Below are positions 24,001-27,000 of a stretch of 64,000 nt of DNA, piece after piece. Where the stretch lies: the NCBI RefSeq assembly GCF_041248615.1, contig NZ_CP158427.1. One strand, given 5' to 3'. Positions within the stretch are counted from its first letter, which is position 1. Every line of letters starts with the position of its first letter. The position numbers were made by a program. This DNA is from Escherichia coli. GTDB lineage: Bacteria; Pseudomonadota; Gammaproteobacteria; Enterobacterales; Enterobacteriaceae.

Positions 24001-27000
24001 TCCTCAGAATAATCCGGCCTGCGCCGGAGGCATCCGCACGCCTGAAGCCCGCCGGTGCACAAAAAAACAGCGTCGCATGCAAAAAACAATCTCATCATCC
24101 ACCTTCTGGAGCATCCGATTCCCCCTGTTTTTAATACAAAATACGCCTCAGCGACGGGGAATTTTGCTTATCCACATTTAACTGCAAGGGACTTCCCCAT
24201 AAGGTTACAACCGTTCATGTCATAAAGCGCCAGCCGCCAGTCTTACAGGGTGCAATGTATCTTTTAAACACCTGTTTATATCTCCTTTAAACTACTTAAT
24301 TACATTCATTTAAAAAGAAAACCTATTCACTGCCTGTCCTGTGGACAGACAGATATGCACCTCCCACCGCAAGCGGCGGGCCCCGACCGGAGTCGATTTA
24401 GTTACAACACTCAAACACAACCACCAGAAAAACCCAAGTCCAGCGCAGAACTGAAACCACAAAGCCCCTCTCCCATAACTGAAAAGCGGCCCCGCCCCGG
24501 CCCAAAGGGCCGGAACAGAGTCGCTTTTAATTATGAATGTTGTAACTACATCATCATCGCTGTCAGTCTTCTCGCTGGAAGTTCTCAGTACACGCTCGTA
24601 AGCGGCCCTCACGGCCCGCTAACGCGGAGATACGCCCCGACTTCGGGTAAACCCTTGTCGGGACCACTCCGACCGCGCACAGAAGCTCTGTCATAGCTGA
24701 AAGCGGGTATGGTCTGGCAGGGCCGGGGATGGGTAAGGTGAAATCTATCAATCAGTACCGGCTTACGCCGGGCTTCGGCGGTTTTACTCCGGTATCATAT
24801 GCAACAACGGAGTGCCGCCTTCCATGCCGCTGACGCGGCATCTCTAACCTTCACTCTTGACCATGTGAATGACAATCATTATTGTTTGTGTGGTAATGGG
24901 ATAGAAAGTAATGGATAGAAAAAGAACAAAATTAGAGTTGTTATTTGCATTTATAATAAATGCCACCGCAATATATATTGCATTAGCTATATATGATTGT
25001 TTTTTTAGAGGAGAGAATTTTTTATCCATGCATACATTTTACTTCTCTGCATTAATGTCTGCAATATGTTACTTTATTGATGATAATTATTATTCAATAT
25101 CCGATAAGATAAAAAGGAGAGCATATGAGAACTCTGACTCTAAATGAGTCAGACCGGAGATATCCACTTTAGACTGAGATGCGTCAGAGGAACCCAGATA
25201 AATAGTGTCATCACCAGTACCGGTACCGGTACCGGTACTCACAGCCCCGCTGTATTTGCCGCCACTGAGGAATACCTTTTCTTGATTCTTTACGGTGGTA
25301 CGTAAGTACTCCATTTTCGTACAGGCTCTCTTCCGCTTCCTCGTCGATTCGCTCACTACGTTCGGTCATCGATTTGCGGCGAGCAGTGCCACCTTTCGCA
25401 TATCATTGACGATCCCGATTTGAGCCAGAGAGCTGAGGTCTAATGGAGCGGAATCGTACGAGAGTGAATCAATTGTATGATATATAAATATTCTAATTGG
25501 TATAGAAAATGCTATTTAAAATATTTTTTATCTAAAAACGACATTTAACGGACAGTTTTGTCTGGTAATCGATTTTTCCGACGTTTATTTTTTTGCTAAC
25601 TGTACGTTTTCGTATGGTTAGCCCCCTGTCCCCATCTACCGAGTGGAAGTTCTGGGTACACGCTCGTAAGCGGCATATGTTGGTGACATATACGTAGTAA
25701 TGACAAGGTGATAAATGGCACAGGTTAATACGCGTTTAAGAATCGACGCTGAACTGAAGGATGCTTTTATGGCCGTTGTAAAAGCATGGGCCGTAGCGGC
25801 TCTTAATTAATCCGGAAATAAGTGATCTATAAGGCACTGTTGCAAAGTTAGCGATGAGGCAGCCTTTTGTCTTATTCAAAGGCCTTACATTTCAAAAACT
25901 CTGCTTACCAGGCGCATTTCGCCCAGGGGATCACCATAATAAAATGCTGAGGCCTGGCCTTTGCGTAGTGCACGCATCACCTCAATACCTTTGATGGTGG
26001 CGTAAGCCGTCTTCATGGATTTAAATCCCAGCGTGGCGTTGATTATCCGTTTCAGTTTGCCATGATCGCATTCAATCACGTTGTTCCGGTACTTAATCTG
26101 TCGGTGTTCAACGTCAGACGGGCACCGGCCTTCGCGTTTGAGCAGAGCAAGCGCGCGACCATAGGCGGGCGCTTTATCCGTGTTGATGAATCGTGGGATC
26201 TGCCACTTCTTCACGTTGTTGAGGATTTTACCCAGAAACCGGTATGCAGCTTTGCTGTTACGACGGGAGGAGAGATAAAAATCGACAGTGCGGCCCCGGC
26301 TGTCGACGGCCCGGTACAGATACGCCCAGCGGCCATTGACCTTCACGTAGGTTTCATCCATGTGCCACGGGCAAAGATCGGAAGGGTTACGCCAGTACCA
26401 GCGCAGCCGTTTTTCCATTTCAGGCGCATAACGCTGAACCCAGCGGTAAATCGTGGAGTGATCGACATTCACTCCGCGTTCAGCCAGCATCTCCTGCAGC
26501 TCACGGTAACTGATGCCGTATTTGCAGTACCAGCGTACGGCCCACAGAATGATGTCACGCTGAAAATGCCGGCCTTTGAATGGGTTCATGTGCAGCTCCA
26601 TCAGCAAAAGGGGATGATAAGTTTATCACCACCGACTATTTGCAACAGTGCCAACACGGGCACCACTACGGAGTTACCGAACTGCCTGTACGACTGAGTG
26701 TCTGACACAGGAATGCGAAAAGGCCTGCCATCTACTTTTTCAAAACCCATAAGGCGCGCGCACTCTCGTGGAGTCAGCCTGCGGGGCCGATGCGCCTGAT
26801 TTTCTTCGTTCGCGAAGTCTGTTTCACCTGTGGCCATATCCCAGCCACGGTCTATCAGAATTTCAGACCCGTCTTTGTGATAGCGAGCAGAAAGCGTACG
26901 GGCAATGCTTTCTTTATTTTCAGGATTAACGAGGCCAAAACCGAATCCGTTACCCTTAGCTGCGTGCTTTTTGGCGTAGTTATAGAGATACTCCCAGAGT

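Follow-up and report, generated by a model that had tools for sequence, protein, structure and literature searches.

The closest described counterpart of the locus studied here is the repA4/ter/ssi region of the IncFII plasmids R1, R100 and NR1. The ter sites are located in repA4, and this region has been reported to be necessary for stable maintenance and is treated as a cis-acting DNA element required for it (PMC4398462); the drawing of the minimal R1 replicon includes ssiA (PMC10989972). In this study, we analysed a direct repeat, R1 and R2, next to an IncFII origin in a 64-kb window, meaning the whole stretch of Escherichia coli DNA under analysis. The region shares with R1, R100 and NR1 its position right after oriR, an inverted Ter-like pair inside a repA4-like frame, and GC-rich hairpins. 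The first copy of the repeat belongs to the repA4 region of IncFII plasmids itself, with no difference, whereas the second retains no more than the initial 31 nt, cut loose from the remaining sequence. A second close parallel is the Campbell-type fusion of homologous replicons, in which backbone homology in direct orientation flanks partner-derived DNA. The window has the same layout, but all that is left of the homology is 31 nt plus a decayed yacA (yacA'), and the partner is reduced to fragments totalling about 0.8 kb. R1 and R2 are probably homologous pieces of two IncFII-type plasmid backbones, with R2 as a stranded relic; because copy 2 would be a dead leftover of the second backbone, the locus is read as an ordinary recombination scar; we take it neither for a novel RNA gene nor for a site of insertion. 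The coordinates of all features are collected in Table 1.

Table 1. Features of the IncFII replicon and of the adjoining extra DNA (positions in the window)
Feature	Position	Strand	Remarks
CopA RNA	22960-23050		Rfam match
repA	23123-23992		ORF list
Inverted Ter-like pair	24395-24413 and 24534-24552		each with GTTGTAACTA
R1 (repeat copy 1)	24576-24606	+	resident IncFII backbone; starts the conserved GC-rich block
Conserved GC-rich hairpin block	24588-24841		3' portion of 'repA4'; follows oriR closely
Near-invariant core across genera	24590-24680	-	ACACGCYCGTAAGCGGCCCT...CCACTCCGAC
Three-hairpin cluster	24753-24841	-	hairpins A 24758-24771, B 24777-24819, C 24824-24841
Left junction	24841-24844		backbone homology stops, colicin V-region homology starts
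Colicin V remnant	24845-25153	+	91.5% DNA identity to pTA142-3 cvi/cvaC
Promoter-like site of the colicin V remnant	24857-24885	+	predicted
cvi, intact	24911-25147	+	78 aa; 70/78 identical to annotated Cvi of pTA142-3
cvaC'	25126-25153	+	first 9 codons (28 nt)
Autotransporter-type gene fragment	25154-25285	-	tblastn 63% over 46 aa, annotated autotransporter gene in CP098976
Fragment common to small RepL/RepA-type plasmids and a rearranged IncF region	25286-25423		alignment
Tn3-family miniature element (IS101/TIME-like)	25428-25633		206 bp
10 bp ATCTACCGAG	25634-25643		between miniature element and R2; uncertain origin
R2 (repeat copy 2)	25644-25674	+	probable relic of a second IncFII-type backbone; GCGGC end abuts yacA promoter region
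yacA promoter region and decayed yacA	25675-25826	+	~23-bp internal promoter-region deletion
IS26	25833-26652	-	terminal repeats GGCACTGTTGCAAA at 25833 and 26652; truncates the region on the right

The IncFII origin context given by the first-pass annotation was confirmed by the CopA RNA and repA, which match the annotation in the retrieved plasmids. Both Ter-like sites lie within the repA4 reading frame (24355-24696) and form an inverted repeat of 19 nt that is 89% complementary; we take them to fit the Ter consensus, as predicted Tus sites. R1 begins 23 bp past the second of these sites, and pKF3-70 carries the R1 sequence at the identical position. The PGAP annotation 'RepA4' covers the sequence of the 24560-24850 block in some records. 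Judged from sequence, R1 and the GC-rich block are assigned to the downstream module of the IncFII replicon, directly 3' of repA and oriR.

R1 (TGGAAGTTCTCAGTACACGCTCGTAAGCGGC) and R2 (TGGAAGTTCTGGGTACACGCTCGTAAGCGGC) are identical at 29 of 31 positions and lie in the same orientation with a spacing of 1068, so that the direct repeats described before do exist and are one base longer than the 30 bp proposed. The 19-mer common to both copies, GTACACGCTCGTAAGCGGC, occurs at exactly two sites in the 64-kb window with up to three mismatches allowed, against 0.01 matches predicted from shuffles, which places the repeat well above chance. The alignment showed that a core kept without change in all genera, from Escherichia to Pantoea, Erwinia and Edwardsiella, starts with the 3' 17 nt of R, and that the 5' 14 nt differ between lineages. 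The two differences in 31 positions, the 10 bp immediately upstream, which also differ between R1 and R2, and the variable 5' half of R argue for two different parental lineages; by contrast, the two plasmids with the complete structure are 98.7-100% alike. The exact R2 31-mer was absent from intact backbones (best match 34/41 among 44 sampled), and a search of JGI metagenomes for the parental lineage of R2 gave 0 matches. A TTCTGGG variant of R was seen in an intact but diverged backbone (L010), and H171/L084 proved to be ordinary backbone. The 10 bp preceding R2 may, from their sequence, be diverged backbone (7/10 match to lineage L009, not significant).

Next to R1, the first-pass annotation had described a GC-rich, hairpin-rich stretch as part of a possible insertion. 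The results showed that its composition (57-59% GC) and its folding were described correctly; as single-stranded DNA the block folds better than shuffles on both strands (z -3.4 and -3.5). Its assignment to an insertion was wrong, as the block is core IncF backbone. A search with 24560-24850 found it in 4110 of 5426 complete E. coli genomes (6475 records), and about 55 Enterobacterales homologues came from genera including Citrobacter, Klebsiella, Pantoea, Erwinia and Edwardsiella. The block ends at hairpin C, ATGCCGC-TGAC-GCGGCAT, beyond which all lineages diverge. Folded as single-stranded DNA, 24576-24700 reached -29.7 kcal/mol (z -3.5) on the minus strand and -22.7 kcal/mol (z -1.8) on the plus strand; the minus strand, which folds better for the core, is the leading-strand template. 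On this strand the three-hairpin cluster reads 5'-(hairpin C)(hairpin B)(hairpin A)-GTACTG-3', with a fold z of -3.2. The proposed covariation check showed that the hairpins are maintained by compensatory changes, which occur across genera in all three stems of the cluster. Per-sequence folding was used for this result; RNAalifold on a plain MAFFT alignment missed the 3' hairpins.

These hairpins, with z about -3.4 and compensatory substitutions, are what could be put forward for reading the 1-kb interval as a structured non-coding RNA locus, a reading we consider highly unlikely. The structure sits in the replicon module and not in the interval as a whole, and it is the minus strand, the template of the leading strand, on which the core reaches the better fold. 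Compensatory substitutions here preserve Watson-Crick pairing on either strand and thus fit single-stranded DNA equally well. An Rfam scan of 22000-27000 at E<=1 returned only CopA and weak PK-repZ/PK-repBA matches at the same site, and a scan of the whole window at the gathering threshold returned nothing in 24300-25900. Of the suggested RNA locus, the conserved structured element stands, but an RNA gene does not; the block matched no Rfam family at E<=1. The literature, moreover, views the region as a cis-acting DNA maintenance element (PMC4398462). For the hairpin block, a single-stranded-DNA replication element (repA4/ssi region) is the more plausible interpretation, ahead of an RNA gene.

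In layout, the cluster also resembles the complementary-strand origin of phage G4, in which three stem-loops are followed by (C/G)TACTG on the template strand. The primer of the G4 origin is annotated to start at ...CCCTACT/G; that predicted for the cluster would begin AGUA... and run into stem-loop I. We regard 24753-24841 as a candidate 'G site', a primase site of the G4 type at which leading-strand priming would start. This candidate mapping would follow from the G4-like layout and from earlier work by Masai & Arai in 1989 and Jiang et al. in 1993. No primary-sequence similarity to the G4 origin was found by blastn, and in Smith-Waterman comparisons 55-86 of 300 shuffles scored equally high; homology by sequence was dropped after these searches. 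As a by-product, this analysis describes a hairpin block, conserved throughout Enterobacterales, in which the stems vary by compensatory substitution and the layout is G4-like, in agreement with older biochemistry on R1 and R100.

The same region raises the question of whether R itself acts. R could be a self-contained cis-acting site (a priming start, a site for primosome or protein binding, or a promoter element), with R2 kept by selection as a further working copy beside yacA. The 3' 17 nt of R are invariant across genera, the GTACTG on the minus strand of R1 resembles the G4 primer start, and R contains AAGCGG, a motif of PriA-type assembly sites. Against this, R2 lacks every hairpin adjoining R1 and has CCCAG where R1 has CTG. 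The alignment showed that this CTG is not conserved in lineages outside E. coli, and it varies even among E. coli plasmids, which also weakened R1 as a primase start (minus-strand CTG). The copy of R2 in pSCZP1 carries one additional substitution, and the downstream yacA is a pseudogene. The arrangement is also rare: the whole structure was found in 2 PLSDB records (98.7-100% alike) and the R2 relic in 3 more complete E. coli plasmids; the relic is present in pLWY6J-2, pSCZP1 and two other E. coli plasmids. A cis-acting role kept by selection is accordingly very improbable, and the repeat as such is probably functionless. We give an equally slim chance to a variant in which the ~90-nt core is a distinct, poorly characterised element that acts in cis in replication, perhaps an additional site of priming or primosome assembly apart from the G4-like cluster; if this were true, the first 19 nt of the core would have survived at R2 through a residual function, for example protein binding, and not by chance. 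RecA requires more than 19 nt of identity for efficient recombination. The longest identical run between R1 and R2, 19 nt, is too short for this, so the arrangement should be stable.

We then compared the interval with other IncFII plasmids. pKF3-70 matches 24300-24844 and 25688-25815 with ~34 bp between, and has a single R followed by the GC block. Because most IncFII plasmids pass almost directly from 24844 to 25688 (yacA), the extra DNA was placed at ~24845-25687. The expected indel polymorphism was thus found, with ~0.84 kb extra relative to thousands of plasmids. On the left, positions 2682-2997 of pTA142-3 match window 24844-25153, and the left junction coincides precisely with the point of divergence of all IncF lineages. 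Between the end of R1 and this boundary lie 235 bp; R2, in turn, is contained in the extra DNA, at its right end.

These boundaries bear on the suggestion of an inserted module with duplicated attachment sites, in which a mobile module would have integrated site-specifically and the 31-mers would be attL and attR. Direct repeats in the same orientation do flank DNA that is missing from most IncFII plasmids, and the part of the claim that concerns incoming extra DNA was borne out. The repeats, however, lie off the indel edges (24841-24844 and about 25634-25687), and the 235 bp after R1 are core backbone, as found in the 4110 E. coli genomes. No recombinase or integrase was found in the interval, where the ORF list holds cvi and short ORFs and the four main ORFs were scanned with Pfam and NCBIfam; the nearest transposase is that of IS26, outside the interval. 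The interior consists of at least five unrelated fragments with separate affinities. An 'empty' or 'excised' form, with R joined to yacA and ter upstream, was found neither in E. coli genomes by near-match search nor in JGI metagenomes; what comes after R in relatives is the GC block, and the R-yacA fusion is confined to the relic lineage. Attachment sites were rejected, since the indel is not delimited by the repeats and there is no recombinase, and we give this reading almost no credence. A transposon target-site duplication, which would measure 2-14 bp, was likewise discarded, the repeat being 31 nt long and imperfect with no abutting inverted repeats. Both copies probably go back to homologous stretches that formerly lay on either side of DNA arriving from elsewhere.

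The AT-rich character noted for the interval was found in two islands, 24850-25150 and 25450-25600, with 27-29% GC. The small membrane-like ORF in the first was identified as a colicin V immunity gene, with 90% protein identity to the annotated immunity protein. As in described orphan colicin immunity genes, the window appears from its sequence to hold an intact cvi with a promoter-like site and a cvaC cut after 9 codons; no cvaA or cvaB was found within the 64-kb window. The autotransporter-type fragment, which had no Pfam or NCBIfam match, contains the ACCGGT repeat (25213-25238); this encodes TGTGTG and has 4.3 copies, not the three first counted. The next fragment shows about 80% identity to L085/L086 and 88% to L006. 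Within it, 25324-25395 resembles the pBR322/pUC ssiA (n'-pas) sequence. A 'ColE1-derived' label was rejected, and because the small-plasmid relatives L085 and L086 lack RNAI by Rfam, the fragment is termed only ssi-like.

The Tn3-family miniature element has counterparts in IS101 of pSC101 and in TIMEs. Like these, it is noncoding and has ~38-bp Tn3-type termini (GGGG...ACGAAAAC...), which resemble the Tn3 inverted repeat; the window copy differs in its degenerate left repeat and in the absence of a duplication. Its right repeat ends ...CCCC at 25633, and in the alignment homology with relatives starts sharply at GGGG and stops at CCCC. Relatives of the element occur in about 1,500 plasmids. 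The window copy has no target-site duplication (AGCCA vs ATCTA), whereas the copy in L008 has a 5-bp duplication, ATGTT; the flanks in the window therefore come from different DNA. The element thus sits at a junction produced by rearrangement, which a plain insertion would not give, as expected for a transposition-associated deletion or fusion. A Xer/cer-like site considered at 25595-25625 (a short palindrome with ~1,500 plasmid matches) was rejected in view of the Tn3-type termini, the sharp edges and the 5-bp duplication of the relative.

On the right, R2 is joined directly to the decayed yacA through a 5-bp GCGGC microhomology. The alignment showed that R2 and its downstream sequence equal the backbone minus 24607-24839, with GCGGC at both deletion endpoints. 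Since R2 is fused via GCGGC to the yacA promoter, the second copy has lost the ~233-bp hairpin block and everything upstream of R. yacA' starts at 25715 and reaches a premature stop at 25808-25810, with residual homology to about 25826. It shows a weak RelB/DinJ match, and 25688-25815 is 91% identical to pKF3-70 and pTA142-3. We consider it likely that yacA' continues the second backbone fragment. In p14408_1 the adjoining element carries the annotation of an IS26 transposase; in pLWY6J-2 it is missing, and the sequence runs on into AT-rich DNA.

The most economical history we infer for the locus is fusion followed by deletion. In the first step, an IncFII plasmid and an IncFII colicin V plasmid resembling pTA142-3 would have joined head to tail, as a cointegrate or dimer in which the partner had the order ori-ter-R-GC block-yacAB-cvi-cvaC.... 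In the second, successive deletions, one of them adjacent to the Tn3-type miniature element, would have removed the redundant second replicon. R1 would remain in the working replicon, with oriR, the Ter pair, R, the GC-rich hairpin block and the module end GCGGCAT; left over would be cvi-cvaC' from one end of the incoming plasmid and R2-yacA' from the other, with unrelated fragments between. The order in pTA142-3 is repA-ori-R-GC-yacA-yacB-cvi-cvaC-cvaB-cvaA and that in the window is R1-GC-cvi-cvaC'-...-R2-yacA', with every piece on the plus strand, an order collinear with what deletions would leave of a head-to-tail fusion. Also in its favour, elsewhere in the 64-kb window there was no second repA, CopA, set of cva genes, yacB or miniature element, and p36C_1_p1 holds a comparable relic, a 46-bp piece made of R and the first hairpin. 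Against this history counts the need for four or more deletions or junctions. An intermediate that still has another repA/ori between cvaC and R2 was not recovered, so the path is drawn from order and orientation only.

A single resident backbone that kept its own yacA could instead have received a foreign patch, running from cvi through the miniature element to 26-36 nt of another IncF backbone. Illegitimate recombination where hairpin C ends, using the GCGGC(AT) microhomology there, would have brought it in, and only the 31-mer itself would be foreign backbone. GCGGCAT stands at both junctions (24835-24841 and 25670-25676) and can be read as a 7-bp junction duplication, the left junction coincides with the module boundary, and R2 is the sole remnant of a second replicon observed. 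A second IncF backbone is nevertheless still needed to supply R2, and the side and orientation of cvi, as expected of a pTA142-3-like partner, stay unexplained. yacA' also has a deletion of its own and is ~91% identical to the references, as against ~95% for the resident replicon. We judge the imported patch unlikely and prefer the fusion of two IncFII-type backbones followed by decay.

Beyond correct annotation, the importance of this locus is small; the analysis provides a base-by-base map of one junkyard of gene fragments. It indicates that a clean-looking 31-bp direct repeat near a plasmid origin can be the residue of plasmid fusion and decay and not the signature of a mobile element. It also indicates that the conserved IncF replicon module ends after GCGGCAT (24841), a natural breakpoint for cargo exchange.

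The direct repeat that the first-pass annotation placed near the IncFII origin was confirmed, at 31 nt, one base more than noted. The two copies, TGGAAGTTCTCAGTACACGCTCGTAAGCGGC (24576-24606) and TGGAAGTTCTGGGTACACGCTCGTAAGCGGC (25644-25674), were identical at 29 of 31 positions with a spacing of 1068 bp, and a search of the 64-kb window for a 19-mer common to both, tolerating up to three mismatches, gave exactly two occurrences against 0.01 expected from shuffles. CopA RNA and repA (Table) confirmed the IncFII context. The entire region 24300-25850 was matched by only two PLSDB records, p14408_1 (100%) and pLWY6J-2 (98.7%), and its ends alone by at least 5,000 others. 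The reference IncFII backbone pKF3-70, which has a single repeat with the GC-rich block directly after it, was collinear with 24300-24844 (95% identity), and its yacA promoter and start (window 25688-25815) lay only ~34 bp after the equivalent of 24844. Because that backbone resumes so soon, ~24845-25687 is extra DNA relative to pKF3-70, which bears out the proposed inserted module as far as added DNA is concerned. The duplicated attachment sites proposed with it were not supported: copy 1 lies 235 bp left of the left edge of the extra DNA and copy 2 inside its right end, positions that by themselves argue against attachment sites.

Copy 1 belongs with the GC-rich block, and the two together matched 6475 records, spread over 4110 of the 5426 complete E. 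coli genomes, with the PGAP label 'RepA4' in some of them. When an 18-nt core motif was used as the query, ~55 homologues of the block were returned from Citrobacter, Klebsiella, Enterobacter, Serratia, Pantoea, Erwinia, Mixta, Izhakiella and Edwardsiella. Their alignment showed that the first 14 nt of the repeat vary between lineages and that ~90 nt from ACACGCYCGTAAGCGG on (24590-24680) are near-invariant between genera. This core, ACACGCYCGTAAGCGGCCCT...GCGGAGATACGCCCCGAC...GACCACTCCGAC, was near-invariant in IncF-like replicons of Escherichia, Citrobacter, Pantoea, Erwinia, Mixta and Edwardsiella. Every lineage diverged right after the hairpin ATGCCGC-N3-4-GCGGCAT (24824-24841); by this comparison the hairpin marks where the conserved replicon module ends, and the break in the window backbone falls exactly there. 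The two Ter-like sites are presumably the Tus-dependent fork traps of the plasmid. In published work, repA4 holds ter sites and an IncFII plasmid needs it to be stably maintained (PMC4398462), and ssiA is drawn in the minimal replicon of plasmid R1 (PMC10989972).

The sequence after copy 1, annotated as GC-rich and hairpin-rich and possibly a structured RNA locus, was indeed 57-59% GC and folded better than shuffles on both strands (z -3.4 and -3.5). With a plain alignment of homologues, RNAalifold gave mostly invariant pairs. Folded one by one, all homologues formed three hairpins in the 3' part (A, B and C; 24758-24771, 24777-24819 and 24824-24841 in the window), and the stems changed in a compensatory way: ATGCCGC/GCGGCAT, ATGACGC/GCGTCAT, ATGCGCC/GGCGCAT and ATGCGC/GCGCAT in one set; GGCGG/CCGCC, GGCGCCA/TGGCGCC and GGTGCCA/TGGCACC in a second set; and CCGGC/GCCGG and CCCGC/GCGGG in a third. 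The stretch thus stands as a conserved structure. An RNA locus was not supported, since Rfam gave zero family matches in the block at E<=1 and the core 24576-24700 folded clearly better as the minus strand (-29.7 kcal/mol, z -3.5) than as the plus strand (-22.7 kcal/mol, z -1.8), which in this folding model points to a role as single-stranded DNA rather than RNA. Elsewhere, upstream of the replicon, the transfer/leading region gave minus-strand Rfam matches to the antisense RNAs AS-traG, AS-traI and AS-pc02 (pHK01-type) at 6965-7050, 15644-15720 and 20651-20834.

Read 5' to 3', the minus strand presents hairpins C, B and A and then GTACTG, a layout like that of the complementary-strand origin of phage G4, where three stem-loops are followed by CCTACTG and the RNA primer is annotated to begin at the T of that motif. 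Primary-sequence similarity between 24753-24841 and G4 was not significant, and in the alignment the CTG was not conserved beyond the E. coli lineage. In replication of plasmid R1 the fork moves away from repA; with this direction the minus strand would serve as leading-strand template here. Masai and Arai reportedly described a G4-type priming site in R1 in 1989 (cited through PMC3167613). By analogy, we infer that 24753-24841 is a candidate for that site.

Features of the replicon, the interval between the repeat copies and the flanking IS26 elements
Feature	Coordinates	Strand	Remarks
CopA RNA	22960-23050		IncFII replicon
repA	23123-23992		IncFII replicon
repA4-like ORF	24355-24696		holds both Ter-like sites, which lie just downstream of oriR
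Ter-like site 1, GATTTAGTTACAACACTCA	24395-24413		in repA4-like ORF; inverted relative to site 2
Ter-like site 2, TGAATGTTGTAACTACATC	24534-24552		in repA4-like ORF; inverted relative to site 1
Colicin V remnant	24844-25153		promoter-like site, cvi, first 28 nt of cvaC
Autotransporter-like gene fragment	25154-25285	minus	63% identity to annotated autotransporter gene
Small-plasmid-like fragment	25286-25423		similarity to small RepL/RepA-type plasmids; also to a rearranged IncF region
Miniature element, Tn3-type ends	25428-25633		206 bp; left end degenerate
10 bases	between miniature element and copy 2		uncertain origin
IS26 copy 1	25833-26652		adjoins decayed yacA on one side
IS26 copy 2	52151-52970		

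By sequence matches, the interval between the copies is a patchwork of fragments. The colicin V remnant matched the colicin V DNA of the bovine IncFII plasmid pTA142-3 at 91.5% identity. Its intact cvi (78 aa, 70 of them, or 90%, identical to annotated Cvi) is the membrane-like ORF of the first-pass annotation, and the AT-rich stretch described there appeared as two AT-rich islands 3' of the GC-rich block. With cvaC truncated after 9 codons and neither cvaA nor cvaB found within the 64-kb window, the orphan cvi, with its promoter-like site from 24857, may give immunity without colicin production. A 14-15-bp tandem duplication (GTAATGGGATAGAAA x2, 24893-24921) lies across the cvi start codon, with similar sequence in pTA142-3. 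The annotated ACCGGT microsatellite was present in the autotransporter-like fragment, at x4.3 (25213-25238) rather than x3, and (ACCGGT)x4 codes there for a Thr-Gly repeat, TGTGTG.

The centre of the small-plasmid-like fragment aligned with what we take to be the pBR322/pUC ssiA (primosome assembly site) sequence, and 25320-25400 would be a second priming-signal-like fragment near the IncFII one. This site-like stretch, GCTCTTCCGCTTCCTCG...GCGGCGAGC, is common to tiny RepL/RepA-type plasmids; the small plasmids that match the fragment are not RNAI-type. In relatives of the miniature element, homology began exactly at GGGG and ended exactly at CCCC, and one had a clean 5-bp target duplication, ATGTT. 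The window element has no target duplication (flanks AGCCA vs ATCTA), so its two flanks are not from one insertion site. Unannotated relatives with 70-78% identity occurred in ~1,500 PLSDB plasmids from many genera, many of them small and mobilizable.

The 3' end of copy 2 is GCGGC; AT comes next, and then the yacA promoter, ATGTTGGTGAC...ATATACGTAGTAATGACAAGGTGATAAATGG. This promoter comes right after the GCGGCAT of hairpin C in ordinary backbones, so copy 2 and its downstream sequence correspond to a backbone minus 24607-24839, the equivalent of which appears to have been removed between two GCGGC pentamers. All hairpins are gone at copy 2, and CCCAG stands where copy 1 has CTG (minus strand). 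The downstream yacA promoter has a ~23-bp deletion, and yacA is decayed, with a premature stop at 25808-25810 and residual homology to ~25826, before IS26 truncates the remnant at 25833. Without that IS26, pLWY6J-2 continues into unrelated AT-rich DNA; pSCZP1 also has the relic, beside another Tn3-family end, and there it shows one more substitution and another deletion. On the side away from yacA, the first IS26 contains the stop codon and 3' end of a minus-strand ORF for a DNA cytosine methyltransferase (26601-28049). Stray pieces of the repeat and GC-block region recur in IncF mosaics; plasmid p36C_1_p1 (NZ_AP045733.1) has an isolated 46-bp relic at 1501-1545, the 3' half of the repeat with the first hairpin, amid unrelated genes.

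In pTA142-3 the order is ori-ter-R-GC block-yacAB-cvi-cvaC-cvaB-cvaA, where R is the repeat. A plasmid of this kind could have fused head-to-tail with another IncFII plasmid (or as a dimer), giving R-GC-yacAB-cvi-cvaC-...-repA-ori-ter-R-GC-yacA. Three deletions would have followed: one of yacAB, one of most of the second plasmid and with it the redundant replicon, where a Tn3-type element marks one of the endpoints, and one of the second GC block. Fusion and three such deletions yield exactly the order and orientation of the window, R(copy 1)-GC-cvi-cvaC'-...-R(copy 2)-yacA'. The copies differ, as do the 10 bp upstream of each, and a TTCTGGG variant of R was found in a diverged, intact backbone (L010); these differences suggest two different parents. 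Neither the parent lineage of copy 2 nor the fusion intermediate was found in the sampled lineages and metagenome scans. In a close variant, which present data do not separate from this path, the resident backbone would have kept its own yacA, and the foreign DNA joined at the GCGGC(AT) microhomology would end in 26-36 nt of IncF sequence. Our model takes fusion followed by deletion as the source of the window arrangement.

Judged from its sequence, the repeat is a by-product of plasmid fusion and decay and is predicted to be non-functional. All components are of known kinds: an IncFII repA4/ter/ssi module, an orphan cvi, a Tn3-type miniature element, IS26 and gene fragments.
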